From: an uncultured Chloroflexia bacterium
Lineage (GTDB): Bacteria; Chloroflexota; Limnocylindria; Limnocylindrales; CSP1-4
DNA: 64,000 bases
Direction of reading: 5' to 3'
Assembly: GCA_963819655.1 (NCBI GenBank)
Contig: CAWFXA010000001.1
Coordinates: forward strand, 327,155 to 391,154
A program made the position numbers and the translations under genes. Shown piece by piece: positions 14,410-37,876 of this stretch; position 1 is the first letter of the stretch, and every line of letters starts with the position of its first letter. The notes below the pieces were generated by a model that worked only from the letters and a program-made list of their open reading frames with translations, did no database searches and had not been told where the DNA came from.

Positions 14410-14420
14410 TCTCCACCGAG

Positions 14421-14909: not shown

Positions 14910-14946
14910 CATCTCCCGATCCGACCCTTGGAAGGAACCATTTGCC

Positions 14947-15663: not shown

Positions 15664-15974
15664 CGCGACCGCCGCCTCCGTCGACTGGCTGATTCCCGCT
15701 GCGCGCTGGTTGGTTCAGGAGAAGCACGGCCGGTGAGTGGGCGGGGCGGCGGTCGGCGGACGGCGGGCGGCGAGGAACCATGAAGTACGCGCATTGGACC
15801 AACCTTAAGTCCGGTCCAGCGGCCGCCACGGGACTCCGACCGTGCACACCCGCATGGCCGAGCGTGCGATCCGTCGTGTCGTCGAGTATCTCGTCCGCGC
15901 AAACCGATTCTCTGCCTCGGAGGACGACATTAGGTTGCGCTGACGCGCATCGTTCATGGCCGCGCTGCGCCGGG

Positions 15975-16115: not shown

Positions 16116-17027
16116 TCAGGCGCCGGCGATCGCCGCCGCGCCTGTCGACAGGTTGATCCCCGCGGCGCGGCAGTCCTCGGCGAAAGCCGCCTGGGCGTCG
16201 AGCGTCGGTGACCAGCGCGTCGGGAAGGCGATGAGCCGGTCCAGTCCGATCTCGGCAAACCGCGCCAGCCGGTCGACGCGTGCTCGCCCCGCGTCCCGCA
16301 TCTGCTCGTCGCGCTCATATAGCGAGAAACGCATCGTGGCGGGGTCGCGTCCCTCGGCCTCACAGCGCGCGCGGACGTCCCGCATCCGGTCGACGATGTC
16401 GTCGGCCTCGATGAACACGAAGTTCAGCTCGTCCGCGTAGCGGATCGCGTAGCCGGCCGTTCGCTGGCGGCCGTTTCCGCCGACGATGATCGGGATGCGC
16501 GGCTCCTGGAGGCCCTGTGGCACATTGATGGCGCCGCGGACGTGGGCGTAGCGACCCTCGTACGACGAGCGACCCGGCTGGAACATCCTCGTGATGATCT
16601 CGAGGTGGTCACCGAAGGCGCCCATGCGGTCGGCCAGCGGCGGGAACCCGTAGCCGTAGGCGACCCACTCGTCCTCCTTCCAGCCGGCACCTATGCCGAG
16701 CTCGAACCGGCCGCCGCTGATGACGTCGACGGTCGACGACAGCTTGGCGGTGAGCGCCGGGTTCCGGAAGCCCGTGCACACGACCATGTGACCGAGGCGG
16801 ACGCGCTCGGTCACCATCGCGAGGGCGGCAAGTACGGAGAAGGACTCGAACGTGATCTCGTCGGTCGGTACGGGCACGGTGTGGAAGTGGTCGAACACCC
16901 ACAGCGACTCGAAGCCGAGCTCCTCGGCCTGACGCGCGAGCTCGACGGTCCGCGCCCACGCATCGGCCGGCGGCCAGCCGTCGTAGTCGCCTTTCCAACC
17001 TTGTGGTGCCATCAAACCGACCTGCAT
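16116..17027 (-). CDS. LLM-class F420-dependent oxidoreductase (luciferase-like monooxygenase fold)
   Basis: Bacterial-luciferase-like TIM barrel. Motifs FESLWVFDHF and GGRFELGIGAGW. Confidence 0.85.
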   Translation of the reverse strand: MQVGLMAPQGWKGDYDGWPPADAWARTVELARQAEELGFESLWVFDHFHTVPVPTDEITFESFSVLAALAMVTERVRLGHMVVCTGFRNPALTAKLSSTVDVISGGRFELGIGAGWKEDEWVAYGYGFPPLADRMGAFGDHLEIITRMFQPGRSSYEGRYAHVRGAINVPQGLQEPRIPIIVGGNGRQRTAGYAIRYADELNFVFIEADDIVDRMRDVRARCEAEGRDPATMRFSLYERDEQMRDAGRARVDRLARFAEIGLDRLIAFPTRWSPTLDAQAAFAEDCRAAGINLSTGAAAIAGA

Positions 17028-17127
17028 CGTCGCCTCCGATCATCTGTGTGTCGTCGCAACCATTGTCACCGGTCAAGGCGATCGTCGCGTCCGCCGGGAT
17101 GCCGGCCGGCGGTCCTGCCCGGCCCCT

Positions 17128-18357
17128 ATGCTCATCGACATGGATATGACCGCGTTCGACCCGACCGCTCCGCTACCCGGTCCGCCCGACCCGTGGGCGT
17201 CGACCTCACGTCCGAGCACGCGCTCCGGACCGCCGTATCACATGACGGAGATGATCGAGGCCGAACCGGCACTCGCGGACCGGATCCTGACCCGCCACGA
17301 GCCCGTCGGCAGCGGAGCGGCCGAGCTCGCGCGGGTCATCCGCCGGACGATCCGCGCTGGGGACCCGGTCGTCGTGACCGGCTGCGGGACGTCCGAGCAC
17401 GCCGCCTACGGGGTCGCCGAGATCCTGCGCGAGGCCGTGCGCTCAGCTGAGATCAGGGCGCCCGGGCACGCGACGCGCCACGAGCCCGTTGCCGCCCAGG
17501 CGTTCGAGCTATCACTCGACCCACCGTCGACGGGCCTGGTCATCGGCATCTCGCACGAGGGCGGCACGACCGCCACGAACGCGGCTCTCGACGCCGCGCG
17601 CGCGGCCGGTGCCCGCACGGCGATCGTCACGGTGTCGGACCGCTCCCCCGGCGCGGCACTCGCCGATATCGTCGTGGAGACCGACGAGCTCGATCAGAGC
17701 TGGTGTCACACGGTCGGCTATCTGAGCCCCCTGGTCGCGGCGACCGCGGTCGGGGCGCACATCGCGGGCCGCCCCGTGGATGCGGCCTTGCGCGCAGCCG
17801 CACGCGACCTGATCCAGGCCGGCGTCGACCGGGCCGGGATCGCGGAGCCCGTCGCGACCAGGTTGTCGGAGGCGCGCTCCATCATCGCCATCGCGTCCGG
17901 CGCCGATCGCACGGCCGGTCGCGAGCTCGTCCTCAAGATCGAGGAAGGGACGTGGATCCCGGCGGCCTACCGGGACCTCGAGAGCTTCCTGCACGGGCAT
18001 CTCGCCGCCACCGACGAGGCGATGGGGCTCGTTCTCATCCTCGCCGATCGGGACCGACGCGCCGAGCGGCTGGCGCGCGCGACGGGTGCGCTACGGGCTG
18101 CTCGCGGCGTCGGGATGGTCGCCGCGGCGATCGTCGCCGCCGATGCGGCCGTCGACCTGCCGACCGACCTCACCCCCGCGGGGCGGATCGTGATCCCCGA
18201 GGCGCCGGCGCTCCCCGCGTCGGTCGCCGCGCTGCTCGGCACCGCGACGCCGCTCCAGATGCTGACCGAACGGCTGGCGCGGGCACGTGGTGTCAACCCA
18301 GACCCGATCCACCGCGACGTCGACCGATACCGCGAGGCGGCCGAGTCGGCCGAGTGA
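17128..18357 (+). CDS. SIS-domain sugar-phosphate isomerase/deaminase family protein (AgaS / GlmS-C-terminal-like)
   Basis: SIS motif VVVTGCGTSEHAA and a second SIS-like half. The true start may be the internal MTEMIEAEP (~17242). Confidence 0.65.
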   Translation: MLIDMDMTAFDPTAPLPGPPDPWASTSRPSTRSGPPYHMTEMIEAEPALADRILTRHEPVGSGAAELARVIRRTIRAGDPVVVTGCGTSEHAAYGVAEILREAVRSAEIRAPGHATRHEPVAAQAFELSLDPPSTGLVIGISHEGGTTATNAALDAARAAGARTAIVTVSDRSPGAALADIVVETDELDQSWCHTVGYLSPLVAATAVGAHIAGRPVDAALRAAARDLIQAGVDRAGIAEPVATRLSEARSIIAIASGADRTAGRELVLKIEEGTWIPAAYRDLESFLHGHLAATDEAMGLVLILADRDRRAERLARATGALRAARGVGMVAAAIVAADAAVDLPTDLTPAGRIVIPEAPALPASVAALLGTATPLQMLTERLARARGVNPDPIHRDVDRYREAAESAE

Positions 18358-18361
18358 GAGG

Positions 18362-19348
18362 TCAGATCCGGCCGACGAGCTCCTGGCCCATGACATCGAC
18401 CATGTCGAGGTCCCACGGGATGAAGTCCTGGAACATGATCCGCTCGATGCCGGCTTCCGCGAAACGCTCGACCTGAGCGCGGGCGTCATCGGGCGTGCCG
18501 TAGATCCACCGGAGCCGACGCTCCTCGAGCCACGCCTCGCCGGTCTCGGCGTCGGCGCCGAAGGTATCGAGGAGTGTCCGCTCGCGGTCCTCGACCTCGG
18601 CCTGCGTGCGTCCGACGAGGATCCCCGCCATCGTCGAACGGGCCAGCGTCGACGGGTCGCGGCCGATCGCCCGGCACGCCTCGTCGAGTTTTACGCGGAC
18701 CTCCGCCGCACGCGCTGGCGACGCTGAGCTGAGGTTGTACTCGTCCGCATAGCGGGCCGCCAACCTGAATGACCGCGGCGAGCCGCCACTGCCGACGATG
18801 ATCCGCGGACGCCGCCCTCCGGCAGGCGTGGTGGGACGACCCTCCGTCTCGACCGGCCTCGGCCGGAAGAGCGCATCCCGGACGCGGATCCCGGTGATGC
18901 CCTCGAACGACCAACCGTCGGGCTCGCCCCACAGCCCGTGGAGGATCGCGAGCTGGTCCTCGAGCATGTCCGCCCGTCGTTCGATGGGCGGGAAGTCGAG
19001 ACCGAGCTGGCGGTGCTCCTCGTCGTTCCAGCCGGCGCCAACGCCGACCTCGACGCGCCCGCCGCTCATCTCGTCGACGGTCGCGACGACCTTGGCGAAC
19101 ACGCCCGGATGGCGGAACGTCACCGGTGAGACCAGGGCGCCGAGGGTGATCCGCTCCGTCTCGCGCGCAAGCCCGGCGAGCACGGTCCACGCGTCCGTCG
19201 TCGGCTGACCCGACTCGCCCGGGAAGCTCGCAAAATGGTCCGAGCGGAAGAATGCATCGAAGCCGTTCGCTTCGGCGCGCCTCGCCGATGCGAGCTGGTC
19301 GGCGTAGCTCATCCCCTGCTGTGGCTCGAGCATCAGCGCGTATCGCAT
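18362..19348 (-). CDS. LLM-class F420-dependent oxidoreductase
   Basis: Luciferase-like fold (FDAFFRSDHF, GGRVEVGVGAGW). Start taken at MRYALMLEPQQG. Confidence 0.85.
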   Translation of the reverse strand: MRYALMLEPQQGMSYADQLASARRAEANGFDAFFRSDHFASFPGESGQPTTDAWTVLAGLARETERITLGALVSPVTFRHPGVFAKVVATVDEMSGGRVEVGVGAGWNDEEHRQLGLDFPPIERRADMLEDQLAILHGLWGEPDGWSFEGITGIRVRDALFRPRPVETEGRPTTPAGGRRPRIIVGSGGSPRSFRLAARYADEYNLSSASPARAAEVRVKLDEACRAIGRDPSTLARSTMAGILVGRTQAEVEDRERTLLDTFGADAETGEAWLEERRLRWIYGTPDDARAQVERFAEAGIERIMFQDFIPWDLDMVDVMGQELVGRI

Positions 19349-19366
19349 CGGGCACTCCTGCACTCG

Positions 19367-19411
19367 GCGTCAATCATTCCGCTTGACGCGATATTCCATT
19401 CGATTATAGTA
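19367..19411 (+). promoter_or_regulatory. Divergent promoter/operator between the LLM and MarR genes: inverted repeat GCGTCAA-N9-TTGACGC overlapping a sigma-70-like -35 TTGACG and -10 TATAGT (16-nt spacer)
   Basis: Direct reading of an AT-richer island in a 70% GC background. The -10 ends 8 nt before the MarR GTG, so the transcript may be leaderless. Confidence 0.4.
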
Positions 19412-19417
19412 ATTCAC

Positions 19418-20008
19418 GTGACACGAACTATCGCACCCCAGCGACCCACGCCGTCCGTGGCTCCCACGTCGTCGCGCGACCCGTACGCCCCCATCATCGC
19501 CGACTTCCAGGCAGCGATGACGATGATGAGGTGCGCGTCGAGCGAGCGGGTGCTCCGGCTCGGCATCAGCGTCGCCCAACTCCATATCCTGTACACGCTG
19601 AGGCGGAACGGCCAGATGCCGATGAGCCGCCTCGCCGAGGTGCTGAACGTCTCCCTTTCGAATGCGACCGGTCTCATCGACCGGATCGAGGAGCGAGGAT
19701 TCGTCGACCGCACGCGCGTCCCGGAGGACCGCCGGATCGTCCTGATCCGGGTCACCGAGGCCGGCGAGCGGATGCTCACTGAGATCGACGCCCTGAGCGA
19801 TGAGCTGCTGCGCTCGGTCCTCGGGCACCTCGATCGATCGAAGCTTGCGGGTGTCGGCCAGGCGGTCGCCGCGCTGCGCGACGCACTCGGTGTCGCGACC
19901 GGGAGCGAGGCGGCGGATCGCCACAGCGGCTCCATCCCCTCTCCACGATCCTCGTCGACCCTCCGGGGTGTCGAGCGCCCGACCCAGACACACCCACAGA
20001 AGGACTGA
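19418..20008 (+). CDS. MarR-family transcriptional regulator
   Basis: Winged-HTH MarR core (LGISVAQLHILYTLRRNGQMPMSRLAEVLNVSLSNATGLIDRIEERGFVDR..DRRIVLIRVTEAG). GTG start chosen; an alternative ATG lies at 19517. Confidence 0.75.
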   Translation: MTRTIAPQRPTPSVAPTSSRDPYAPIIADFQAAMTMMRCASSERVLRLGISVAQLHILYTLRRNGQMPMSRLAEVLNVSLSNATGLIDRIEERGFVDRTRVPEDRRIVLIRVTEAGERMLTEIDALSDELLRSVLGHLDRSKLAGVGQAVAALRDALGVATGSEAADRHSGSIPSPRSSSTLRGVERPTQTHPQKD

Positions 20009-20012
20009 CCTC

Positions 20013-21698
20013 ATGGAATCTTTCCCCGACGCGAACGGGCGAGGGCCCACGCTCGCCGAGGACCCGGCACTCGGGCTGAGCCACCGCGCGAAGATGGAGA
20101 TCCTCTTCGCAGTCTTGCTCGGTCTGTTCCTGGGTGCACTCGATCAGACGATCGTCGGCCCCGCGCTCCCGACGGTCGTGACCGAACTCTCCGGCAACGA
20201 CCTCTATGTCTGGGCCGTGACGATCTACCTGCTCACGAGCACGATCAGCGTCCCGTTCTGGGGCAAGCTGTCCGATCTGTATGGGCGCAAGCCGATCTTC
20301 ATGATCGGCATCAGCATCTTCCTCGTCGGCTCTGCCCTGTCCGGCCTGAGCCAGAACATGGAGATGCTCATCGTGTTCCGCGGGCTGCAGGGCATCGGCG
20401 CCGGCTCGCTGTTCCCGGTCGCATTGGCAGTCATCGGTGACCTGTTCACTCCGGCCGAACGTGGCAAGTACCAGGGCCTGTTCGGAGCCGTCTTCGGCAT
20501 CGCCTTCATCGTCGGCCCGCTGGTCGGCGGCTTCCTCACCGAACAGATCAGCTGGCATTGGATCTTCTACGTCAACATCCCGATCGGCCTGGTCTCATTG
20601 TTCTTCATCAATCGGCTGCTGCCGACCGTGAAGAACCCACGGGCGACGCGGAACTTCGATGTCCTCGGTGGCGTGATCTTCACCGTCGCGATCTCGTTCC
20701 TGCTCGTCGGGTTGACGAACAAGCAGTTCGGCGAGTGGACTGACACGACGGTCGGTGGATTCATCCTCGTGGGTCTGATCGGCACGGTCCTGTTCGTCCT
20801 CGCAGAAGCGCGGGCCAAGGAGCCGATCATCCCACTCAGCCTGTTCAGGATCCGGACCTACACGACGTCGATGATCGCGACGTTCTTCGCCAGCTTCGCG
20901 TTCTTCGGGGCGATCATCTTCCTGCCGCGCTGGTTCCAGATCGTCGAGGGTTTCAGCCCGACGAACTCCGGTCTCGCGGCACTGCCGCTGATGGTCGGAC
21001 TGATCGCCAGCTCGATCGGCTCGGGCCTGATCGTGGCGCGGACCGGTCGCTACAAGTGGCTCCTCGTCGGAGCGATCGTCCTGATGGGCGTGTCGAGTGC
21101 GCTGATGACGCAATTGACGGCGACGACTCCGCTCGCGCTGGTCTGGTTCTGGATGTTCCTGTCCGGCCTCGGCGTCGGCCCGACGTTCTCGGTCTTCACG
21201 ATCGTCGTGCAGAACGCCGTGCCCTTCCACGAGCTCGGCGTCGCGACCAGCAACCTGACGTTCTTCCGCCAGATCGGCGGCACGGTCGCGCTCGCCATCG
21301 TGGGCACCATCTTCGGGACCACGTTCACGGAGCAGATGGCGCCGCAACTCGCCGCCGCTGGCGTGCCTGCCCAGGTGGTCCAGGGCTTCACCCAGGCCAG
21401 CAATAGTGGTCAGCTGGACTTCAACCAGCTGACGGGCGTCGGTGATCTCGGCGCGACGATCCTGGCCAGCATCCCGGCCGAGGCCAGGCCGTTCATCGAG
21501 CCGTACATCGCCAACATCGTGGCCGGCATCCATCAGGCGTTCAGCCTGGGCGTCGCACAGACGTTCTGGATCGGCGTCGCGGCGGCGATCGTCGCGGCCC
21601 TGGCGGCCGCCGGGATGCAGGAGCTGAGGCTCCGTACGTCAGCGGCGCCCGCTCCTGAGGCACGGCCTCGACTCACGAGTGCACCGGCGGCCGACTGA
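20013..21698 (+). CDS. MFS transporter, DHA2 (EmrB/QacA, 14-TMS) drug-efflux family
   Basis: Motifs LDQTIVGPALP and GKLSDLYGRKPIF. 14 predicted TM helices. RBS AAGGA upstream. Immediately downstream of the MarR gene. Confidence 0.85.
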   Translation: MESFPDANGRGPTLAEDPALGLSHRAKMEILFAVLLGLFLGALDQTIVGPALPTVVTELSGNDLYVWAVTIYLLTSTISVPFWGKLSDLYGRKPIFMIGISIFLVGSALSGLSQNMEMLIVFRGLQGIGAGSLFPVALAVIGDLFTPAERGKYQGLFGAVFGIAFIVGPLVGGFLTEQISWHWIFYVNIPIGLVSLFFINRLLPTVKNPRATRNFDVLGGVIFTVAISFLLVGLTNKQFGEWTDTTVGGFILVGLIGTVLFVLAEARAKEPIIPLSLFRIRTYTTSMIATFFASFAFFGAIIFLPRWFQIVEGFSPTNSGLAALPLMVGLIASSIGSGLIVARTGRYKWLLVGAIVLMGVSSALMTQLTATTPLALVWFWMFLSGLGVGPTFSVFTIVVQNAVPFHELGVATSNLTFFRQIGGTVALAIVGTIFGTTFTEQMAPQLAAAGVPAQVVQGFTQASNSGQLDFNQLTGVGDLGATILASIPAEARPFIEPYIANIVAGIHQAFSLGVAQTFWIGVAAAIVAALAAAGMQELRLRTSAAPAPEARPRLTSAPAAD

Positions 21699-21719
21699 CC
21701 TCGCACCGCTCCTCCTCCA

Positions 21720-21759
21720 CGCCCCCGGTGGTTTCGCCGCCGGGGGCGTTCCTCGTTCC
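21720..21759 (+). terminator. Rho-independent terminator candidate after the MFS gene
   Basis: A 12-bp GC stem CGCCCCCGGTGG / CCGCCGGGGGCG with a 5-nt loop, followed by TTCCTCGTTCC. Confidence 0.5.
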
Positions 21760-21860
21760 CGGCTAGGATTCGCTCGATGCCTCCGGTCCCCGCTCCGTTC
21801 CCCGCTCCGTTCCCGCCCCGGCTCCAGGCGGTCGGGACCGTCGACGCGCCCTATCGGCCG

Positions 21861-22268
21861 ATGCTCGATGTCGCCGACCTGCCCGAGGGCTCGATGCGCC
21901 GAGTGACGGTCGGCGAGCTCGACGTGCTGCTGGCCCACACCGAACGCGGGGTCTTCGCGACCGACGATCGCTGCCCTCACATGTCCGCGCCGCTATCGAT
22001 CGGCGAGCTCGACGGTTGCATCGTCGCCTGCCCACTCCACGACGGTCGGTTCGACCTCGTGAGCGGCGACACCGCGCAGATGCCGACCACGGGTGGACTC
22101 GATGCGGACGGGGTCTACCACCCGACCTGGTCACCGGCCGGAAGGGACCCCAAGGTCGACCCGCCCGGCAAGAAGGCTGAGGCTCGCCGGCTCACGCGCG
22201 TCCGTCGGTTTCGCTACTACCCGGTGCGGGTGGTGGATGGGGTCATCGAGGTGGCGCTGCCGGTCTAG
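21861..22268 (+). CDS. Rieske [2Fe-2S] ferredoxin-like protein
   Basis: Rieske ligand boxes CPHMSAPLS...CIVACPLHDGRF. Start taken at MLDVADLPEGSM; the upstream Pro-rich stretch is probably not translated. Confidence 0.65.
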   Translation: MLDVADLPEGSMRRVTVGELDVLLAHTERGVFATDDRCPHMSAPLSIGELDGCIVACPLHDGRFDLVSGDTAQMPTTGGLDADGVYHPTWSPAGRDPKVDPPGKKAEARRLTRVRRFRYYPVRVVDGVIEVALPV

Positions 22269-27441: not shown

Positions 27442-28563
27442 ATGATGGCCCCCAGCGACGCCTCGGCAGAGATTCGCCTGATCGGCCTGGAGAAGCGCTT
27501 CGGCGAGATCCGGGCGGTCGACGGCGTGACGCTCGACATCCGGACCGCGGAGTTCTTCTCGCTCCTCGGCCCGTCGGGCTGTGGCAAGACCACGACCCTC
27601 AGGATGATCGGCGGCTTCGAGCGACCGACGGCGGGCCGGATCCTTCTCCGTGACCGCGACGTCACCGACGACCCGCCCGACAAGCGCCCGGTCAACATGG
27701 TCTTCCAGCAGTACGCCCTGTTCCCGCACCTCGACGTCGCGGCCAACATCGGCTTCGGGCTGCGACGCCGCAACGTCGCTCGGACCGAGATCGCGCGGCG
27801 TGTCGGGGAGGTGCTCGAGCTCGTGCGGCTGGAGGGCTACGACCGCCGCAAGCCGTCCGCGTTGTCGGGCGGTCAGCAGCAGCGCGTGGCGCTCGCCAGG
27901 GCGCTCGTGAACAGGCCGAACGTCCTCCTGCTCGACGAACCGCTCGGAGCGCTCGACCTGAAGCTCCGGCGCCAGCTCCAGGTCGAGCTCAAGCGGATCC
28001 AGGCTGAGGTCGGCATCACGTTCGTCTACGTGACGCACGACCAGGAAGAGGCACTCACGATGAGCGACCGGATCGCGGTCATGCACGCCGGCCGTGTCGA
28101 GCAGCTGGGGACGCCGGAGGAGCTGTACGAGCGGCCAGCGACTCGCTTCGTCGCCGATTTCATCGGGACGACGAACCTCCTGTCCGGGTCCGTCGAGTCG
28201 ACAGCCGGCGGAACCGCGATCGTCCGCCTCGAAGGCGGCGATACCTGCGCCGTGGCCGGCACTGACCTGCGCGCCGGCCGGACGGTCGAACTCTCGATCC
28301 GACCGGAATCGATCGTCCTGAAGCGGTCCAATGGCACCGCGCACGACGGCCACGCACCGCTGCGCGCCCAGGTCGAGCAGGTCGCCTATCTCGGGGGAAC
28401 CGTCCAGTACCAGGTCCGCACGCGCGGCGGCCTGGCAATCACCGTGCTCGCGCCGAAGTCCGGGGAGCGGCACCAGATCGGAAGCGACGTCGACATCGTC
28501 TGGCCGCCTGCCGAGGCACTGGTCCTCGACGCGGCCCCCGCCGAGGAGGAGGTCACGACATGA
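27442..28563 (+). CDS. ABC transporter ATP-binding protein, PotA/spermidine-putrescine-type
   Basis: Walker A GPSGCGKTT. Signature LSGGQQQRVALARAL. Walker B LLLDEPLGALD. C-terminal TOBE-like domain. Confidence 0.85.
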   Translation: MMAPSDASAEIRLIGLEKRFGEIRAVDGVTLDIRTAEFFSLLGPSGCGKTTTLRMIGGFERPTAGRILLRDRDVTDDPPDKRPVNMVFQQYALFPHLDVAANIGFGLRRRNVARTEIARRVGEVLELVRLEGYDRRKPSALSGGQQQRVALARALVNRPNVLLLDEPLGALDLKLRRQLQVELKRIQAEVGITFVYVTHDQEEALTMSDRIAVMHAGRVEQLGTPEELYERPATRFVADFIGTTNLLSGSVESTAGGTAIVRLEGGDTCAVAGTDLRAGRTVELSIRPESIVLKRSNGTAHDGHAPLRAQVEQVAYLGGTVQYQVRTRGGLAITVLAPKSGERHQIGSDVDIVWPPAEALVLDAAPAEEEVTT

Positions 28564-29768
28564 ACGAAAGGCACGATGGATCGAGCATCGATCTCGAGAA
28601 GGCTCTGGTCCGCTACATGGTGGAGCGCCGCGTCACACGCCGGGAGCTCCTCGAGCGCATCGCGCTGGTGGGCGGTGCGGCGGCGCTCGCGCCGGTCATC
28701 GCCGCCTGTACGTCGAGCGGCACGGCGAGCCCGTCGGTCTCGGCCGCCGCCGCGCCCTCGTCGGCCGCTCCGTCGGCGTCCGCGGCACCGACGCCTGTGC
28801 CATCGCCCGAGGCGGAGCTGAACATCCTCAACTGGGTCGACTACCTCGCCGACGATGTCATCAAGTCTTTCGAGGACCAGCACAACGTCAAGGTCACCCA
28901 GAGCTTCTTCTCGAATACCGACGAGATGTACGCCAAGCTCGGGACGGACGGTGGCGACTACGACATCAGCTTCCCGATCTCGGTCGACGTCCCGAAGATG
29001 ATCGAGGGTGGGGTCATCGCGAAGCTCGACCCGTCCTTCCTGACGAACATCGGCAACCTTGGCGCGGAATGGGCCAACCCGGGATACGACCCCGGCAACC
29101 AGTACACGGTCCCGTACATGTGGTGGACGACGGGTGTCGGCTACGACCCGGCGCGCATCAAGGAAGAGCCGACCAGCTCGAAGGCGCTCTGGGATGACCG
29201 CTGGAGCCAGCACATCGCGATGCTCGACGACTGGCAGGAGGTGTTCGGGCTGGCGCTGATCCAGCTCGGACATTCCGCGAACACCGAGGATGAAGCCCAA
29301 CTCGATGCGGCGCTGGCCCTCCTCAAGCAGCAGAAGCCGCTTGTCCGGACCTACTCGACCGACACGATCGCGACGATGACCTCGGGCGACGTGTGGATCG
29401 GTCACATCTGGGGTGCGGACCGCTTCGCCATCCAGGAAGCGATCCCGGACTTCGCCTACTACATCCCCGCGGAAGGCGGCGTGAAGGGCTCTGACACCGT
29501 CGCCACTTTCACGGGGTCGCCACATCCGATCGCATCGCAGATGTTCATCAACCACCTGCTCGACGCTCAGAACAGCGCCCTCAACACCAACCTCATCTAC
29601 TACATGGGCCCGAACGCGGCCGCGAAGGAGTTCATCGATCCGGCGATCCTGAGCGACCCGACGATCAACCCCGACCAGGAGATCGTCGACAAGCTCGAGG
29701 AGCTGCTCAGCCTCAGCGGTTCCGTCCGCGACGCGTACCTGTCGCGCTGGCAAGAGCTGCGAGGCTGA
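28560..29768 (+). CDS. ABC transporter substrate-binding lipoprotein, PotD/PotF (polyamine/opine) family
   Basis: ATGA overlap with the ATPase gene. Lipobox IAACTSSG. Family-typical WVDYLADDVIKSFE...GHIWGAD. Confidence 0.8.
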   Translation: MNERHDGSSIDLEKALVRYMVERRVTRRELLERIALVGGAAALAPVIAACTSSGTASPSVSAAAAPSSAAPSASAAPTPVPSPEAELNILNWVDYLADDVIKSFEDQHNVKVTQSFFSNTDEMYAKLGTDGGDYDISFPISVDVPKMIEGGVIAKLDPSFLTNIGNLGAEWANPGYDPGNQYTVPYMWWTTGVGYDPARIKEEPTSSKALWDDRWSQHIAMLDDWQEVFGLALIQLGHSANTEDEAQLDAALALLKQQKPLVRTYSTDTIATMTSGDVWIGHIWGADRFAIQEAIPDFAYYIPAEGGVKGSDTVATFTGSPHPIASQMFINHLLDAQNSALNTNLIYYMGPNAAAKEFIDPAILSDPTINPDQEIVDKLEELLSLSGSVRDAYLSRWQELRG

Positions 29769-29776
29769 CCGGGCAC

Positions 29777-30679
29777 ATGGGCGCGGCGGTCGGCACAGTC
29801 GAGGCGACCGCCGCTGCCACACCCGGTCGATTGGCGCGACTGCGCGCCGCGTGGCTGGTCCTGCCCGGGGTGGGCTGGCTGATCGCGTTCTTCATCGTCC
29901 CGCTGGCGATCATCTTCGTGGTCAGCCTGGGCTCGCGCGACGCGCTCGACCGCATCACGCTCGAGCGGCTCTCGCTCGACAACTACGTCCGGGCGTTCGA
30001 TCCGGTCTTCCTGCCGACGTTCCTCAACTCGCTTCGCTACGCGGCGATCACGACGATCCTGTCACTCGCCATCGGCTACCCCGTCGCGTACTGGATCAGT
30101 CGATACGGCGGGCGGCACAAGGTCCTGCTGCTCATCCTCGTGATGCTCCCGTTCTGGACGAGCTATCTGATCCGGACGTACTCCTGGATCATCCTGTTGC
30201 GCGACAACGGTGTCGTGAACTCGGTCCTCCAGACGATCGGGCTGACCCAGGAGCCGATCATCCTCATGAACACGGACATCTCCGTGATCCTCGGGATGTC
30301 GTACGGGTTCCTGCCGTTCGCGATCCTGCCACTGTTCGTCTCGATCGACCGGCTCGATCCCGACCTCGTCGCGGCCGGACGCGACCTGTACGCCTCAGGT
30401 CGAGGCGCGTTCCTCCACGTGACTCTGCCGCTCACGATGCCCGGGATCATCGCCGCGGCATTGCTGACGTTCATCCCGGCGCTCGGCGACTTCGTGACGC
30501 CCGACCTGCTCGGCGGACCGCAGACGACAACGATCGCCAAGAACATCCAGGTCCTGTTCCTGGCGGGACGTGACTGGCCATACGGTGCGGCGCTCGGTTT
30601 CGTGCTGATGATCGTGACGCTCACCGGGACGCTCATCGCGTTGCGGACTCTCCGGCGAGAGGTTGTCGGTGGCGACTGA
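29777..30679 (+). CDS. ABC transporter permease (PotB-like)
   Basis: Six TM helices. EAA-like loop DLYASGRGAFLHVTLPLTMPGIIAAAL. Confidence 0.85.
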   Translation: MGAAVGTVEATAAATPGRLARLRAAWLVLPGVGWLIAFFIVPLAIIFVVSLGSRDALDRITLERLSLDNYVRAFDPVFLPTFLNSLRYAAITTILSLAIGYPVAYWISRYGGRHKVLLLILVMLPFWTSYLIRTYSWIILLRDNGVVNSVLQTIGLTQEPIILMNTDISVILGMSYGFLPFAILPLFVSIDRLDPDLVAAGRDLYASGRGAFLHVTLPLTMPGIIAAALLTFIPALGDFVTPDLLGGPQTTTIAKNIQVLFLAGRDWPYGAALGFVLMIVTLTGTLIALRTLRREVVGGD

Positions 30680-30703
30680 GACTGTCGGCGAGGCCGGCCC
30701 GCC

Positions 30704-31513
30704 ATGATCCGCGAGGGCAACCGCTGGCTGTCGGCCTACGCGGTCCTCGTGTACGCGTTCCTGTTCGCGCCGATCCTGGTCCTGATCATCTACTCGTTCA
30801 ATCGGGCCCGACGGGGACTCGTGTGGCAGGGGTTCACGCTCGACTGGTACCCGAAGCTGCTCGCGAACGACGAGCTGCTCGATGCGCTCATCGTCACGCT
30901 CCAGGTGGCGGCCGTCGCGGTCCTCGTGTCGACCGTTCTTGGCGCACTGCTCGGTCTCGGGCTGGCGCGGCTGCGGTTCCGCGGCCGTGGCGCGACCGAG
31001 ACGCTACTCCTCGTCCCGATGATCACGCCCGAGATCGTGATGGGTCTGTCGCTGCTGCTGTTCTTCGTCCAGCTGTTCGACGTCCATGGCTCGATCGCCC
31101 AGCTGTGGGTGGCGCACATCACGTTCTGCGTGTCATACGTTGCGATCGTCGTGCGCGCGCGAGCGGCGAACATGGACCCGCATCTGGAAGAGGCCGCGCG
31201 CGACCTCGGGGCGTCGGCCTGGGGCGCATTCCGTTTCGTGACGCTGCCGCTCATCGCACCGGCGGTGCTGGCCGGGGCGCTGCTGGCCTTCTCGCTGAGC
31301 TTCGACGATTACGTCGTCTCGACCTTCAACTCCGGGGTCGGCAGCTCGACCCTGCCGCTGTACATCTACGGCAAGATCAAGTTCGGCGTGACGCCCGAGA
31401 TCAACGCGATCTCGACGATCGTTGTCGCCGTCACCGCCGTCGCGATCCTCATCGCCTGGCGAGCCGGCGCGTTCAGCCCCGCGACCGAGCGGCGGGTCGC
31501 GGACGACCGCTGA
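30704..31513 (+). CDS. ABC transporter permease (PotC-like)
   Basis: Six TM helices. EAA loop EEAARDLGASAWGAFRFVTLPLIAPAVL. Confidence 0.85.
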   Translation: MIREGNRWLSAYAVLVYAFLFAPILVLIIYSFNRARRGLVWQGFTLDWYPKLLANDELLDALIVTLQVAAVAVLVSTVLGALLGLGLARLRFRGRGATETLLLVPMITPEIVMGLSLLLFFVQLFDVHGSIAQLWVAHITFCVSYVAIVVRARAANMDPHLEEAARDLGASAWGAFRFVTLPLIAPAVLAGALLAFSLSFDDYVVSTFNSGVGSSTLPLYIYGKIKFGVTPEINAISTIVVAVTAVAILIAWRAGAFSPATERRVADDR

Positions 31514-31547
31514 CCGACTCTGCCTCGAGCGGCGTCGACCGGCTTCG

Positions 31548-32852
31548 TCAGGTCCTGGTGGCCGCCTTGGCCCTGGCCGCGGACCGTGACGAGGCGTCCG
31601 GCGTGGCGCGCGGGAGGCGGACGCCGGCGATGTCCCCCTCGAAGACGTCGCCGTCCTTCGGCGTCGGAACGTCGTACCGCAGACGGATCGTTCGCTGCGA
31701 GTTCATGCCGTCGTTCGCATAGCGGTCGACAGCCATCAGGTCGAAGGCGTGGACGCTCGGCTCCTGGTTCGAGAAGCGACCCGCCGTCCAGCTCTGCGAC
31801 TTGGTCCCGCGCTGCTGGAGCTCGCAGACGTGCCAGTCCTGGCGGTTCGTCAGGTCCCAGAACGCGATCGCATCGGATGGGTCGAAGCCGGGGGCCGCAA
31901 TCGTCTCGGGTTCGAACATCCACTCGCAGGTGATCCGCGTGTGGGCCGGGCCGGCCGGCTGCAACCGATGAACGAGCAGGTAGTCGGGGTGGATCGACAG
32001 GAAGGTCATCGGCCAGATGAGGTAGTAGTAGATCCGCCGTTCATCGATCGGCGTGATCCCGGGGATCGCCGGGCGGCCGCCACGATGGCCGCCGTCGATC
32101 GCCATCGTCTCGGCGCTGTCGACGAGCTCCATCCAGCCACCCTGCCACGGTCCGGTTGGTGCGAAGTCGCCGCCGATGTCGTACGGCGTCAGCCTGTTCA
32201 GCTGCGGGTGGATGCCAGGGCAGTGGTAGCACTCGCTGTAGTTCTCGCCGACGAACTTCCAGTTCGTGTCGACCTCGTACGTGACCGTGTGCGCGACACG
32301 GAGACGGGCGAAGTCGAACCGCGCGAGGTGCGGCGGCAGGTCGCCCAGCCACTCGATGAGTGGCGGTGTCTCCGGGGAGAGACAGACGAAGACGAAGCCC
32401 TGCCAGGTCTCCATCCGGACCGCGACCAGCCCGAAGTCCTTGCGGTCGAAGTCGTCGAGGTCGTCGGTGTGCTTGGCCCGGATGAGTGACCCATCGAGGT
32501 CGTAGATCCAGGCGTGATACGGGCACTGGAACCGGACGGCGGGCCCGCACGGATCCTCGACGACCGCCGTCCCGCGGTGGCGGCAGACGTTGTAGAACGC
32601 CCGGAGCTGGCCGTCGCGACCGCGGGCGATCAACAGCTGCTCGTCGTCGAGGGTCGCCAGGAAGTAGGTGCCCGGCGTTGGCGCGTCCTCCTCCCGCCCG
32701 ACGACCATCCACTCGCGCCGGAACCATTCCTGTCGCTCGAAATCGTGGATCGCCGGGTCGTGATAGGCCCGCCCGGGCAGCAGGGACGCGGCCCGGTACG
32801 GCTTGCGGACGGCGGCGATCTCCTCCGCGGTGAGCGGTCCGGTCGTAGTCAT
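31548..32852 (-). CDS. Rieske non-haem-iron oxygenase alpha subunit (aromatic-ring-hydroxylating / GbcA-CntA-like family)
   Basis: Rieske box CRHRG...CPYHAW. Mononuclear iron site ENYSECYHCPGIHP. Start MTTTGPLTAEE with an AAGGAC RBS. The start overlaps the stop of the upstream GcvT-like gene (ATGA). Confidence 0.8.
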   Translation of the reverse strand: MTTTGPLTAEEIAAVRKPYRAASLLPGRAYHDPAIHDFERQEWFRREWMVVGREEDAPTPGTYFLATLDDEQLLIARGRDGQLRAFYNVCRHRGTAVVEDPCGPAVRFQCPYHAWIYDLDGSLIRAKHTDDLDDFDRKDFGLVAVRMETWQGFVFVCLSPETPPLIEWLGDLPPHLARFDFARLRVAHTVTYEVDTNWKFVGENYSECYHCPGIHPQLNRLTPYDIGGDFAPTGPWQGGWMELVDSAETMAIDGGHRGGRPAIPGITPIDERRIYYYLIWPMTFLSIHPDYLLVHRLQPAGPAHTRITCEWMFEPETIAAPGFDPSDAIAFWDLTNRQDWHVCELQQRGTKSQSWTAGRFSNQEPSVHAFDLMAVDRYANDGMNSQRTIRLRYDVPTPKDGDVFEGDIAGVRLPRATPDASSRSAARAKAATRT

Positions 32853-34021
32853 GTCTTGGGAACGTCCTTCTTCGGGTCGAGGAACGGGATGGCCGCGGTT
32901 CGTGCCGGCCAGCGGCCACCGTCGGGCGCCTCGATCTCGAGTGGTGTCCTGGCCCCGGCGAGGCCGATCGGCATCCACACGTAGCCGATGTTCCGCTCGA
33001 GGCGCGGCGACCAGATGAGGTCCGTGACGGTGCCGACCGGTTCCCCGTCGTGGAACGCGCGGCACTTGCGCGACAGCTCGAACGGAAGCGCCTCCCCGTC
33101 CATCTCGATGCCGACGAGCTTGCGGTCGACGCCGGTCCGCCGGATCTCCTCCAGCGCCGCCTTGCCGATGTAGTCGGCGTCCTGCTCCTCCACGAGCCGC
33201 TCCAGACCCATGACGTGGAACGGGCTGTCCGCGATCGTGATGTCGGAGCCGTAGTTGAAGATGCCGGCTTCGATCCGACGCGCCTCGCACGGTGCGATCG
33301 GCCGGATGCCGTGCGGGCGGCCGGCTTCCATGATCCGGTCCCACAGCTCGCCACCCCGGGACGGGTCGCGCAGATAGATCTCGTAGCCGACCTCGCCGGT
33401 CCAGCCGGTCCGCGAGATGACGACGGGGATCCCGTCCAGCTCGGTCGTCAGCGTCCAGTAGTACTTGATATCGAGCACCTGCGGCCCGAACAGAGAGGCG
33501 AGGGTGTCTTTCGACTTGGGACCCTGGACCTGGACCGGGTAAACCTCCGGTTCGCGCACCGTGACGTCCATGCCGCTATGGATCGCGACGCCGCGCGCCC
33601 ACAGGCCCGCGTCCGAGTCGGCCAGGGCCAGCCACCAGCGATCTGCCTCGACCCGCAGCAGCACCGGGTCGTTGACGATGCCGCCGTCCTCGGCGGTGAT
33701 CAGCACGTATTTACCCTGGCCGACCGCGCACTTCGTCAGGTCGCGACAGGTCAGCGTGTTGACGAACGCCGACGCGTCGGGCCCGGTGATCTCGACGATG
33801 CGCTCGACCGACACGTCCCACAGCGTCACGTCGTTGAGCAGCGCCCAATACTCCTCGACGGGGTCGGCGTAATAGCCCGGCAGATACATGTGGTTGTAGA
33901 TGTCGTACGCGCTGCAGCCTGCCTCGAGGGTCTTCTCGAAGAACGGCGAGCGCCGGTACCACGGCCCGAAATAGAGGGTCGACGACTCGGTCGTCGCAGG
34001 TGTCGCGAGCGGCATGGCCAT
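32849..34021 (-). CDS. Aminomethyltransferase (glycine-cleavage T-protein / DmdA-LigM-like) family folate-binding protein
   Basis: GcvT-family fold (ISRTGWTGEVGYEIY, and YYAD...YWALLNDVTLWDVS). 390 aa. Translationally coupled to the Rieske alpha subunit. Confidence 0.8.
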   Translation of the reverse strand: MAMPLATPATTESSTLYFGPWYRRSPFFEKTLEAGCSAYDIYNHMYLPGYYADPVEEYWALLNDVTLWDVSVERIVEITGPDASAFVNTLTCRDLTKCAVGQGKYVLITAEDGGIVNDPVLLRVEADRWWLALADSDAGLWARGVAIHSGMDVTVREPEVYPVQVQGPKSKDTLASLFGPQVLDIKYYWTLTTELDGIPVVISRTGWTGEVGYEIYLRDPSRGGELWDRIMEAGRPHGIRPIAPCEARRIEAGIFNYGSDITIADSPFHVMGLERLVEEQDADYIGKAALEEIRRTGVDRKLVGIEMDGEALPFELSRKCRAFHDGEPVGTVTDLIWSPRLERNIGYVWMPIGLAGARTPLEIEAPDGGRWPARTAAIPFLDPKKDVPKT

Positions 34022-34336
34022 GGACGGCGGACCTCCTGGCAGGGTGGCGAACCGGTCCGATCGTGCAGCCTTGGGATCCTATTGCCTGTCGTGTTCCACC
34101 AGACGGCCCGGGTGGTGCAGCAGGTGCGACCGGGTCGTCCGATGGTCCCTCGGGCGTTCCCACCAGACGTGGCGATGCCCGGCTGCGATAACGCAACCGG
34201 GCATCTGTTCGGCCGATCTCCCCCCAGGATGAGGCCAAGTCGAACAGTACCCGGTACGTGGGTCCTATTCAAGGGGTAGGACCTTACAACTGGTGCAAAT
34301 TCGCACCGAATCGGGACGTTCGACAGGCCGCGCGCG

Positions 34337-36037: not shown

Positions 36038-37876
36038 TTACGTTACGAGGACGAGGGCGTCGACTGCGATCGCGACGAACAGCAGCGACAGGTAGCTGAT
36101 CGAGTAGCGGTAGAGACTGATCGCCCCCTGGGTCGATGCCTCCTCGGACGATCCACGCCGCCACAGGGCGTACGCCTGCCAGATGAACACCGCTCCCAGG
36201 CCCACGGCGGCTCCGAGATAGATGAGACCCATCCGCGCGACGGGCCACAGGACGAGCGAGATCGCGACCATGAGCAGGGTGTACAGCCCGATCTGACGGG
36301 TCGTCTCGGGGATGCCCCGGACGACGGGCAGCATCGGCACACCCGCAGCGGCGTAGTCCTTGCGAATGCGCAGCGACAGCGCCCAGAAGTGGGGCGGCGT
36401 CCAGTAGAACACCAGCGCGAAGAGGATCAACGCCGGGATCCCGACGTCGCCGGTGACGGCCGCCCAGCCGATGACGGGTGGAAGCGCCCCGGCGGCGCCG
36501 CCGATGACGATGTTCTGGGGTGTCGATCGCTTGAGCAGCATGGTGTAGACGACGACGTAGAAGGCGATGGCCAGAAGCGTGAGGAACGCCGCGAGGAGGT
36601 TGATCGTCCAGGCCATCAGCACGAACGAGATGACGCCAAGGACGACTCCGAAGATCACGGCGTTCTCGGGCTCGACCTGGTGGGCCGGCAATGGTCGTCG
36701 CCTGGTGCGGGTCATGAGCGAGTCGATGTCGCGGTCGAGATAGCAGTTGATGGCGTTGGCGCTCCCCGCCGCGAGCGTGCCGCCGATGAGCGTCCAGGCG
36801 ACAGTCCAACCCCAGTCGCCCCAGTCGATGCCGGGCACCCAGCGGGTGGCGAGCACCATCGCGGGCACGGTCGTGACGAGCAGCAGCTCGATGATCCGCG
36901 GCTTGGTCAATGCGATGTAGGCGCGGATGCGGTCGCCGGTCGTCGGTGGGACGGCTGTCCCCGCTTCGGGCTCGCGCAGGCCGCCGGTGCGGACGGTGCG
37001 GGCCAAGTAGTAGCTCGTGACGGTGAGCCCCACCAGCGTCGCGAGGATCAGGGCACCGAGCGCAAGGTGCAACGTCTGAGTCCAGGCCGACAGTCGAGTC
37101 AGCACCTGCAGCCCGCCGATCGCGACCTGGATCGCGAACAGCAGCGCCGCGCCGACAGCCAGCCTGACGATCGCTGGCTCGTCTCGCTGGGTTCGCCAGG
37201 CGACGATCGCGAGGGCGACGACGATGGCACCGACGACTGCCGCCACCCATCGATGCAGGACATGGGCCGAGGTGACCTCGGTCAGCGGCGGGACGAGCGA
37301 CCCGTTCATCAGGGGCCAATCCGGGAAGACCAACGCGGTGTCGGTCGCGGTGACGTGGGACCCGAAGAGCAGCAGGGCGAACGTCGCCAGCGTCGCGAAT
37401 GCCGCGAGCAGAGTGAACCGCTGGCTACCGCCCCAGCCGCCGACACGGGCCGGGAAACTGGCACGGACCGTGACGTACACCAGCAGTGCCACCAGCAGCA
37501 TCGCCGCGGCCAGGTGCGCGGTGACCGACTCCCCGCTGTTCCCGAGGCGGACCGTCTCGCGTCCGAGCCAGGCCTGGAACCCGACGAGGACCACGGCACC
37601 GAGCGTCGGCCAGAGCAGCGACCGACGGTCGCGATGGTCGACCCAGGCGAGCACCGCCAGGGCCAGGATCTCGAAGCCGATGATCGCCGCGACGGTTCGA
37701 TGGATCCATTCGATCCAGGCCTTCGGATCGTCGAGCGGCGGGAACAGCTGCCCGTGGCACAACGGCCAGTCCGGACAGCCGAGTCCAGAATCGGTGGCGC
37801 GGACGATGACCCCGATCGTCACGAGCAGGATGGCCGTCCCGAGCGTGGTCGCGGCGAGCTTCTGGAAGCGGGTCAC
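36038..37876 (-). CDS. ctaAB: Fused haem A synthase (CtaA/COX15, N-terminal ~300 aa) and haem O synthase / protohaem IX farnesyltransferase (CtaB, C-terminal ~300 aa)
   Basis: CtaA motifs CPDWPLCHG and DWPLMNG with His-containing helices. CtaB motifs YIALTKPRI, NCYLDRDID and YWTPPHFWAL. A single 612-aa ORF with no internal stop. Confidence 0.8.
   Translation of the reverse strand: MTRFQKLAATTLGTAILLVTIGVIVRATDSGLGCPDWPLCHGQLFPPLDDPKAWIEWIHRTVAAIIGFEILALAVLAWVDHRDRRSLLWPTLGAVVLVGFQAWLGRETVRLGNSGESVTAHLAAAMLLVALLVYVTVRASFPARVGGWGGSQRFTLLAAFATLATFALLLFGSHVTATDTALVFPDWPLMNGSLVPPLTEVTSAHVLHRWVAAVVGAIVVALAIVAWRTQRDEPAIVRLAVGAALLFAIQVAIGGLQVLTRLSAWTQTLHLALGALILATLVGLTVTSYYLARTVRTGGLREPEAGTAVPPTTGDRIRAYIALTKPRIIELLLVTTVPAMVLATRWVPGIDWGDWGWTVAWTLIGGTLAAGSANAINCYLDRDIDSLMTRTRRRPLPAHQVEPENAVIFGVVLGVISFVLMAWTINLLAAFLTLLAIAFYVVVYTMLLKRSTPQNIVIGGAAGALPPVIGWAAVTGDVGIPALILFALVFYWTPPHFWALSLRIRKDYAAAGVPMLPVVRGIPETTRQIGLYTLLMVAISLVLWPVARMGLIYLGAAVGLGAVFIWQAYALWRRGSSEEASTQGAISLYRYSISYLSLLFVAIAVDALVLVT

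Follow-up and report, generated by a model that had tools for sequence, protein, structure and literature searches.

A candidate locus for demethylation of methylated onium compounds in uncultured Chloroflexota, combining a predicted DmdA-like protein and a predicted Group V Rieske oxygenase beside a PotABCD-type importer

Results

Gene content of the locus

We analysed a stretch of 64,000 nucleotides from an uncultured Chloroflexia bacterium (assembly GCA_963819655.1, contig CAWFXA010000001.1, positions 327,155 to 391,154 of the forward strand; hereafter the window), which contains a group of six genes that a preliminary description had put forward as a candidate locus for the demethylation of N-methyl or quaternary amines. 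On the minus strand, the gene of a GcvT-fold protein, here called GcvT1, precedes the gene of a Rieske oxygenase alpha subunit, and on the plus strand four genes of a PotABCD-type importer, in the order potA-D-B-C, converge on the stop codon of the Rieske gene (Table 1). The open reading frames (ORFs), their domains and direct reading of the sequence agree with the preliminary description on the coordinates of all six genes, on the presence of all four components of a PotA-D-like importer convergent with the enzyme pair, and on the ATGA overlap of the two enzyme genes, in which the start codon of the Rieske gene (32852-32850) and the stop codon of GcvT1 are superimposed over 4 nt. All six genes share the local codon bias, with a G+C content at third codon positions (GC3) of 0.89-0.91, and the G+C content of the window is 66-73%. 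Database relatives of the window proteins come from 'Candidatus Limnocylindrales' or from uncultured Chloroflexota metagenome-assembled genomes from soil.

For comparison, one genome per species was scanned, which gave 80 loci, nearly all labelled Chloroflexota, and eleven marker proteins were mapped onto this species-level set. A reciprocal metagenome scan with the Rieske protein added loci, to a total of 160 related loci (numbered with the prefix L); some searches, namely those for a reductase and for the promoter motif, covered 83 related loci.

Table 1. Features of the locus and other features of the window (positions count from the first letter of the window)
Feature	Position	Strand	Description
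GcvT1 (GcvT-fold, predicted DmdA-like)	32849-34021	minus	390 amino acids; Pfam GCV_T PF01571 and GCV_T_C PF08669
Rieske oxygenase alpha subunit	31548-32852	minus	434 amino acids, start MTTTGPL...; Pfam PF00355 and PF00848 (Ring_hydroxyl_A)
ATGA stop/start overlap of GcvT1 and Rieske genes	32849-32852	minus	read directly as ...aag aca tga / ATG ACT...
PotA-like ABC ATPase	27442-28563	plus	ABC_tran and TOBE_2 domains
PotD/PotF-family substrate-binding lipoprotein	28560-29768	plus	402 amino acids; SBP_bac_8 domain
PotB-like permease	29777-30679	plus	BPD_transp_1; PotB model 235 bits against a cut-off of 348
PotC-like permease	30704-31513	plus	BPD_transp_1; PotC model 263 bits against a cut-off of 326
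Candidate promoter/operator motif	34079-34106	minus	palindrome CCGTCTGGTGG overlapping TGGAAC-N6-AGGCAATAG; ~60-75 nt before the GcvT1 ATG
Conserved non-coding block	34151-34312	minus	~160 nt; ~25 nt after the beta-CASP stop codon, before the promoter motif
HcaC-like Rieske-type ferredoxin	21699-22268	plus	~150 amino acids
MFS transporter gene	19797-21698		
COX15/CtaA-UbiA/CtaB fusion	36038-37876	minus	612 amino acids, one ORF
Luciferase-like monooxygenase gene	16116-17039	minus	
Luciferase-like monooxygenase gene	18362-19369	minus	

GcvT1, a predicted DmdA-like protein

Profile scores, structural matches and a phylogenetic tree agree in placing GcvT1 as a predicted DmdA-like member of the GcvT fold. 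The best NCBIfam model is DmdA (NF009133; 311 bits, below the cut-off of 410) and the second is the C-terminal domain of the trimethylamine N-oxide demethylase Tdm (216 bits), and both GcvT models stay below their cut-offs (172.7 against 300 bits and 136.9 against 235.85 bits). In the PDB, the nearest entry is Pelagibacter DmdA (3tfh, E 6e-65), followed by Tdm (9q59). A neighbour-joining tree with 200 bootstraps was built from the GcvT1 proteins of ten loci and a few reference sequences. In this tree GcvT1 forms a clade of its own (99%) outside the separate clade of the P. ubique, Marinovum and P. inhibens DmdAs (98%). Both belong to a wider clade (84%) together with plasmid-borne relatives, a Haloarcula protein and a Limnocylindria paralogue, and the same split sets this clade apart from E. 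coli GcvT, the C-terminal domain of Tdm, a DMGO-like C-terminal domain and GcvT2, a second GcvT-fold protein found in some related loci. Three residues, E73, N117 and P119, are invariant in the DmdA-containing clade and different in the other group. Neither gcvH nor gcvP was found among the scanned ORFs of the window. By its scores, by the tree and by the missing gcvH and gcvP, GcvT1 is not a bona fide glycine-cleavage T protein; the tree, a form of the placement that the preliminary description had suggested, does not group it with such proteins.

The residues that contact tetrahydrofolate (THF) in human GcvT are Asp101, Tyr197, Glu204 and Met56 (PMC9551070). D118, W207 (likewise aromatic) and E214 of GcvT1 align with the first three, and the position of Met56 is taken by E73, as in all members of the DmdA clade. 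Two sequence signatures were considered and set aside: a loss of the catalytic Asp in the DmdA clade was dropped, as human Asp101 corresponds to the second Asp of a DD pair, which is kept as D118, and the Trp of the TGW motif (PMC7487153) is not diagnostic as a marker specific for dimethylsulfoniopropionate (DMSP), being Tyr in roseobacter DmdAs.

GcvT1 is the most conserved protein of the neighbourhood and the constant core of the locus. Its identity is 80-98% across the 80 species, above that of its neighbours; at one locus (L040), for example, the values are 87% for GcvT1, 78% for the ctaA/B fusion, 73% for the beta-CASP nuclease and 44% for the binding protein.

The product of DmdA is reported to be 5-methyl-THF and that of GcvT 5,10-methylene-THF (PMC7487153). 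More distant homologues of GcvT1 occur in other lineages. In Lichenihabitans (51% identity) the gene is flanked by metF on one side and purU-folD on the other, with a PotD-like ABC system beside it, and in Haloarcula (41%) it is accompanied by dihydrofolate reductase (DHFR), metF, creatininase and two DMGDH-like flavoproteins. Plasmid-borne homologues of Phaeobacter and Loktanella (49%) are found with a dmdB-like acyl-CoA synthetase and a dmdD-like enoyl-CoA hydratase; no dmdB, dmdC or dmdD was found in the window or in the related Limnocylindria loci. A cell needs metF to oxidise 5-methyl-THF and does not need it for methylene-THF. Because cultured relatives of GcvT1 adjoin metF, the protein is probably methyl-transferring, not methylene-forming.

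The Rieske oxygenase

Quaternary ammonium compounds, among them glycine betaine, carnitine and benzalkonium, are the substrates of Group V Rieske oxygenases, and for some members of the group a Cys-x-x-Cys pair next to the iron (C206/C209 in CntA, C202/C205 in Stc2), a bridging Glu205 and a Tyr203 that contacts carnitine have been described (PMC10952381). All of these features, including the equivalent of CntA Tyr203, were found in the window protein, which we accordingly describe as a predicted Group V, GbcA/Stc2/CntA-like, alpha-only oxygenase. The ligands of its Rieske cluster (CxH...CxxH) are C90, H92, C110 and H113. The iron-site box reads N204-Y205-S-E207-C208-Y-H210-C211-P-G-I-H215, with C208/C211 as the CxxC pair and D339 as the third iron ligand by alignment, and the 2-His-1-carboxylate triad H210, H215 and D339 together with the bridging E207 aligns with the ECYHC...H and TN..D boxes of Stc2 and CntA. 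The box NYSEC(Y/L)HC is kept in all 59 homologues in which it was read.

The top NCBIfam model is GbcA (NF058607; 211 bits over two stretches, below the cut-off of 670), with about twice the score of the aromatic dioxygenase alpha models HcaE, AntA and BenA. Nearest in the PDB are Stc2 (3vca/4qup), the Ruegeria homologue 3n0q and CntA, and enzymes of the biphenyl and naphthalene type rank later. The protein is about 30-35% identical to any cultured or solved member, and no identical database record was found for it. Its nearest cultured homologue (35% identity) is encoded on a plasmid of Priestia megaterium, between a DMGO-like flavoprotein and solA on one side and a BCCT transporter on the other, with gcvPHT adjoining; this is a typical glycine betaine catabolic cluster.

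No ORF of the Ring_hydroxyl_B type was found, the Rieske gene being flanked by GcvT1 and the convergent potC, and tblastn searches with YeaX and the Priestia reductase gave no match to a Rieske reductase in the 64-kb window or within 10 kb around the homologous genes of the 83 related loci. The preliminary description was therefore right both about the GbcA/CntA-like character of the alpha subunit with its Rieske and iron-site boxes and about the lack of an adjacent beta subunit or cognate reductase. By its GbcA score, its CxxC pair and the lack of a beta subunit, the protein does not side with the beta-dependent aromatic dioxygenases.

An HcaC-like Rieske-type ferredoxin is encoded ~9 kb from the Rieske gene, directly after an MFS transporter gene. 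The gene is syntenic in over 20 loci, at ~9-10 kb from GcvT1, and one checked locus of these has no Rieske oxygenase (L066). The ferredoxin is a possible but unproven electron donor of the Rieske enzyme.

Variation of the site among related genomes

The usual frame of the locus consists of the ctaA/ctaB fusion, a beta-CASP nuclease gene, a variable site, potCBDA on the opposite strand and an exonuclease gene. At the variable site, 24 loci have the arrangement of the window, GcvT1-Rieske-pot, and 23 have MttB-GcvT1-Rieske-pot; a TetR-GcvT1-pot arrangement with a divergent pair of GcvT2 and FAD oxidase genes was found in nine loci without and in five loci with the Rieske gene. The remainder falls into smaller classes, namely MttB-GcvT1 without Rieske, GcvT1-pot alone in another context, Rieske upstream of GcvT1, and a tandem DmdA-like paralogue.

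GcvT1 and the Rieske gene adjoin each other in 61 of the 80 species-level loci, and in both gene orders, so that their adjacency is above chance. The 4-nt overlap is kept only in the closest relatives, L004 and L005 among them; elsewhere a spacer of up to ~130 nt, in one locus of 385 nt, separates the genes. The metagenome scan placed the Rieske gene alone between the beta-CASP and exonuclease genes, together with MttB without GcvT1, or upstream of GcvT1. In many species GcvT1 in turn stands without an oxidase beside it (L072, L074 and L080 are examples), and in other loci the sole oxidase near it is the GcvT2-paired one on the opposite strand. Every subset of the MttB, GcvT1 and Rieske genes was seen except MttB alone, which was undetectable because loci were fetched with GcvT1 and Rieske queries only. 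Since the three genes assort freely, the GcvT1-Rieske pair is not an obligate unit. This finding, and the restriction of the ATGA overlap to close relatives, leaves without support the earlier suggestion that tight coupling of the two genes points to sequential demethylation of one substrate.

Possible fusions of GcvT1 to other domains were not retained: one (P0195) looks like a gene-calling or assembly artefact, and at the locus of another (P0146) a fragment of an FGE-sulfatase replaces the Rieske gene. On one metagenome contig (L096, 8001-9716) the GcvT1 frame runs on into a partial FGE-sulfatase domain in the place of the Rieske gene, as either a real fusion or an assembly or frameshift artefact.

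Two further observations concern other genes of the window. The ctaA/ctaB gene is a single ORF that fuses COX15/CtaA (heme A synthase) to UbiA/CtaB (heme O synthase), and the fusion is kept in related loci. The two luciferase-like monooxygenase genes lie on either side of a SIS-domain gene.

Accessory genes in relatives

The genes that come and go at the site in relatives have links to betaine and choline. A gene of the MttB family, MtgB-like, is present in 28 of the 80 species loci. It lies directly upstream of GcvT1, as in L001, where MttB (7406-8809) overlaps GcvT1 (8806-9978), and in L003 (MttB at 7242-8804). The solved structures nearest to the MttB homologue are those of glycine betaine methyltransferase (9yce, 2qne), ahead of trimethylamine methyltransferase. 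In aerobic bacteria MtgB enzymes serve betaine demethylation with MtgC and MtgD encoded elsewhere (PMC12478193), and no gene for MtgC, MtgD or a corrinoid protein was found nearby in any locus. MttB (PF06253) is not present in the window, and an MttB pseudogene in the 315-nt gap upstream of GcvT1 was rejected, as the gap holds no remnant of the gene.

One locus with an MttB-GcvT1 pair and with neither Rieske nor pot genes (L044) encodes, 3-7 kb downstream of the pair, a GMC oxidoreductase that passes the equivalog cut-off of the choline dehydrogenase BetA (806 against 732 bits) and a second MttB paralogue (14161-15870 and 17226-18941, both on the minus strand). The TetR regulator present at the site in some relatives has a BetI-type C-terminal domain. 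In L073 an MSOX/SolA-like FAD oxidase (11158-12294) starts at the stop codon of GcvT1, where the Rieske gene sits elsewhere. A CrtI/CrtO-like FAD oxidoreductase gene overlaps GcvT2 in L019 (6323-9266, minus strand) and 15 other loci, and this pair is divergent from the BetI-type TetR and GcvT1 genes. GcvT2 resembles Tdm, SoxA and GcvT, and together with the CrtI-like FAD oxidase it looks like a split pair of amine oxidase and folate-capture protein. The accessory genes lend the site a betaine and choline flavour that is independent of the two enzyme genes of the window.

The region upstream of GcvT1

The 315-nt gap upstream of GcvT1 is unusually conserved and contains two conserved blocks. The one nearer to GcvT1 has the consensus of a palindrome, CCRYCWGRYGG, overlapping [T/C]GG[A/G]AC-N6-[A/G]GCAAT[A/G]G. 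A single copy is present in the 64-kb window, and 56 of the 83 related loci likewise have one each (for example at 9930-9949 in L019 and 8304-8323 in L050). In every case the motif precedes the first operon gene. Where this gene is GcvT1, the distance to its start is 70-110 nt, with a value of about 60-75 nt given by the window; where MttB is first, the motif lies before MttB (~125 nt in L050, the sole MttB start that was read). It is read here as a promoter/operator element, because it is a DNA-type palindrome for which no consensus RNA fold was found, and, as it tracks the first gene of the operon, the MttB, GcvT1 and Rieske genes are regarded as one regulated unit. A riboswitch or leader RNA at this 45-nt motif was rejected on the same grounds and for want of an Rfam match at gathering or relaxed thresholds. 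The spacing also resembles the -24/-12 elements of a sigma-54 promoter (GG-N10-GC), but the GG is GC in several species and such a promoter is not claimed.

The second block, of ~160 nt, shows ~79% nucleotide identity across 15 species. Within it lie a hairpin of 14 bp and two palindromic hairpins that show compensatory changes; such changes were seen at five predicted pairs. A covariance model built on the block (R1) detects it in 23 sources, namely the window and 22 loci, and at no other position. The block could be a terminator, a set of regulator sites or a structured leader. A 43-residue ORF that runs across both conserved blocks was rejected, as its third codon positions are equally conserved and its middle is hypervariable in length.

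Discussion

Proposed function

We consider it probable, with moderate confidence, that the locus serves a Limnocylindria-like soil Chloroflexota bacterium as a catabolic module in the use of methylated onium compounds, with glycine betaine or a related choline-derived quaternary amine as the most likely substrate. In the proposed scheme, the PotABCD-type importer with its lipid-anchored PotD-family binding protein would take in a cationic amine. GcvT1, in keeping with its family, would move a methyl group from the substrate to THF, probably with 5-methyl-THF as the product. The co-transcribed, alpha-only Rieske oxygenase would use O2, drawing electrons from a reductase or ferredoxin whose gene lies elsewhere, and may hydroxylate an N-methyl group of the quaternary amine or of its demethylated product, with release of formaldehyde.

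On our best reading, GcvT1 and the Rieske enzyme are independent demethylases that act in parallel or consecutively, not an obligate complex. The free assortment of their genes argues against such a complex, and hence against a formaldehyde-capture role of GcvT1 (see below), and it equally argues against a strictly ordered three-step pathway encoded only at this site. It fits parallel or partly redundant demethylases with different cofactors, namely a corrinoid, a folate, and O2 with iron, and we propose that in this lineage as many as three demethylases of different chemistry are combined behind a single conserved promoter/operator.

A more specific proposal can be offered only tentatively, as a possibility that we would not yet call probable. 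According to it, GcvT1 would be a DmdA-related methyltransferase, independent of cobalamin and O2, with glycine betaine or another quaternary ammonium compound as methyl donor and THF as acceptor. Such an enzyme would add a route by which betaine catabolism can begin; it would be widespread among the abundant Chloroflexota of soil, with more distant relatives in haloarchaea and Alphaproteobacteria (Lichenihabitans), and the site would be a cassette of three swapped or stacked betaine demethylases (corrinoid, folate and Rieske/O2) behind one regulated promoter. All of the components belong to known families and their combination is undescribed. A literature search found no DmdA-like gene co-transcribed with a Group V Rieske gene, with or without MtgB, and no description of a GcvT-family betaine demethylase, which is not proof of absence in either case.

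The label given to the locus in the preliminary description, a candidate for N-methyl or quaternary-amine demethylation, is thus sustained by the enzyme families and by the MtgB-like MttB, BetA and BetI-type TetR genes of relatives. The parts that fall away are the sequential coupling on one substrate and an amine-catabolic theme shared with a pyridoxal-phosphate-dependent decarboxylase (44967) and an FAD amine oxidase (49371). These two genes are unlinked to the locus, 11-16 kb off and beyond housekeeping genes; the best match of the decarboxylase is diaminobutyrate decarboxylase and that of the oxidase, a member of the DAO family, is pipecolate oxidase, both far below cut-off.

Several points weigh against the betaine module. 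None of the proteins reaches the curated threshold of a characterised family (311 of 410 bits for DmdA, 211 of 670 for GbcA and 162 of 582 for PotD), and the neighbour-joining trees were built from few references, with bootstrap values of only 18-32% for the branching inside the DmdA-containing clade. Co-transcription of the two enzymes looks redundant if both remove the first methyl group of the same betaine. The neighbourhood of ctaA/B fusion, beta-CASP and exonuclease genes is plain conserved synteny, which weakens arguments from adjacency, and metF, folD, purU, a corrinoid protein gene and a Rieske reductase gene were all missing within 10 kb in every Limnocylindria locus. The binding protein keeps most of the polyamine-contact residues of PotD. 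The glycine betaine importers known to us use OpuAC-type binding proteins or are BCCT carriers, and we know of none with a PotD-type protein.

Alternative explanations

The last two points lead to the alternative that survives best, although we hold it to be somewhat unlikely: potADBC may be an ordinary importer of spermidine or putrescine with no functional link to the demethylase operon, and its convergence with that operon inherited synteny among syntenic housekeeping genes. PotA passes the cut-off of the polyamine-ATPase subfamily TIGR01187 (375.8 against 355.6 bits), and the solved binding proteins nearest to that of the window, first of all E. coli PotD (E 3e-46), all bind polyamines. 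Among twelve PotD residues that we take to be its spermidine contacts, seven (W34, Y37, D168, E171, W229, D257 and Y293) are identical in the window protein and E36D is conservative; at the remaining positions of this presumed set the protein differs (T35V, S83I, Y85V and W255G). These five changes, E36D included, count against the polyamine alternative, as does the PotD model score of 161.8 bits, far below the cut-off of 582; PotB, PotC and PotD all stay below their equivalog cut-offs. The binding protein has a twin-arginine-like (RR) signal, a lipobox Cys and a long Ala/Pro/Ser linker. The distribution of the importer argues against mere synteny as well. It is usually present with GcvT1 and usually absent from Rieske-only loci: PotC was detected beside GcvT1 in 69 of the 80 loci, including four in which the other synteny is lost (L072, L074, L080 and L082), and in only one of nine well-flanked Rieske-only loci, and a PotD-like ABC system also accompanies the Lichenihabitans homologue of GcvT1. 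The ligand of the importer, as judged from its sequence, is likely a cationic amine.

A different division of labour between the two enzymes would make the Rieske oxygenase the sole demethylase and let GcvT1, with THF, trap the released formaldehyde or carbinolamine as 5,10-methylene-THF, in a split version of the fusions known from dimethylglycine oxidase (DMGO), the sarcosine oxidase SoxA and Tdm. We regard this as unlikely. GcvT1 is often found without an adjacent oxidase, and the Rieske gene without GcvT1, either alone or with MttB only; GcvT1 groups with DmdA at 84% bootstrap, apart from Tdm, the DMGO-like domain, GcvT2 and E. coli GcvT; and the closest cultured relatives of GcvT1 adjoin metF, which serves 5-methyl-THF, not methylene-THF. 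What speaks for capture is the ATGA overlap, the second rank of the Tdm C-terminal domain among both the models and the structures matched by GcvT1, the conserved D118 aligned with the catalytic Asp101 of human GcvT, the MSOX/SolA-like oxidase directly after GcvT1 in L073, and a clear split pair of this kind, the CrtI-like FAD oxidase with GcvT2, in some relatives.

It is more doubtful still that GcvT1 is a terrestrial demethylase for DMSP, S-methylmethionine or another sulfonium compound, merely co-located with a Rieske enzyme that serves an unrelated quaternary amine. No characterised enzyme is closer to GcvT1 than DmdA, and the plasmid-borne relatives in Phaeobacter and Loktanella do have dmdB-like and dmdD-like neighbours, but genes like dmdB, dmdC or dmdD were found in no Limnocylindria locus, the variable accessory genes are related to betaine and choline, and GcvT1 neither joins the clade of true DmdAs nor reaches the equivalog cut-off of DmdA.

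That the pair consists of a housekeeping T protein and an aromatic dioxygenase, as the generic Pfam names and the labels of many database entries suggest ('glycine cleavage system aminomethyltransferase T', 'aromatic ring-hydroxylating dioxygenase subunit alpha'), is hardly credible given GcvT scores far below cut-off and below that of DmdA, the lack of gcvH and gcvP among the scanned window ORFs, the separation from E. coli GcvT in the tree, the twofold higher score of GbcA over HcaE, AntA and BenA, the Group V CxxC pair and the lack of a beta subunit.

Significance

Glycine betaine, choline and related methylated osmolytes are major currencies of carbon, nitrogen and one-carbon units in soil and water, and many Limnocylindria-like Chloroflexota have been recovered from soil metagenomes and are still uncultured. 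If the proposed betaine module is real, this lineage carries a modular demethylase cassette with one constant part, a DmdA-like folate enzyme whose conservation exceeds that of the housekeeping genes beside it. Once known, the substrate of GcvT1 would supply a function for thousands of proteins that databases list as 'glycine cleavage T protein', would possibly reveal a new, cofactor-cheap route of betaine demethylation, and would allow DmdA-like, Group V Rieske and MtgB-like marker genes to be read correctly in soil metagenomes. The locus remains a well-defined target for enzymology if the substrate is a polyamine or a sulfonium compound instead.

Comparison with known systems

The importer resembles E. 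coli PotABCD in its four components, in the PotA subfamily and in a PotD-fold binding protein with most of the acidic and aromatic contacts kept. It differs in the gene order A-D-B-C, in a lipoprotein with an Ala/Pro/Ser linker, in five changed contact residues and in its association with a demethylase gene.

With GbcAB/BmoAB, Stc2 and CntAB the window Rieske protein shares the alpha-only build of a Rieske and a catalytic domain, the metal ligands, the bridging Glu, the CxxC pair and the carnitine-contact Tyr. GbcAB, Stc2 and CntAB have adjacent reductase genes (gbcB, stc3/4 and cntB/yeaX), whereas the window gene has none; its co-transcription with a DmdA-like gene has no reported parallel in GbcAB/BmoAB, Stc2 or CntAB. 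The MtgBCD system of Ruegeria pomeroyi, which passes betaine methyl groups to THF (PMC12478193), has its counterpart in the relatives with an MtgB-like MttB. In contrast to that system, GcvT1 is not a pterin-binding TIM-barrel methyltransferase, and the window lacks MttB.

DmdA, the closest characterised homologue of GcvT1, has the same fold, the same length, the same stand-alone form without an oxidase fusion, and the E73, N117 and P119 markers. However, GcvT1 is only 33-37% identical to true DmdAs, has no dmdBCD neighbours and occurs in a terrestrial host, with betaine- and choline-related neighbours in relatives. The DMGO/DMGDH, SoxA and Tdm systems resemble the window pair in that an oxidative N-demethylase is combined with a THF-binding GcvT-fold module. 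In those systems the two parts are fused, whereas the window pair consists of separate proteins that often occur one without the other; the oxidative partner is a Rieske enzyme in the window and a flavoprotein or DUF1989 domain in the fused systems, and GcvT1 groups with DmdA instead.

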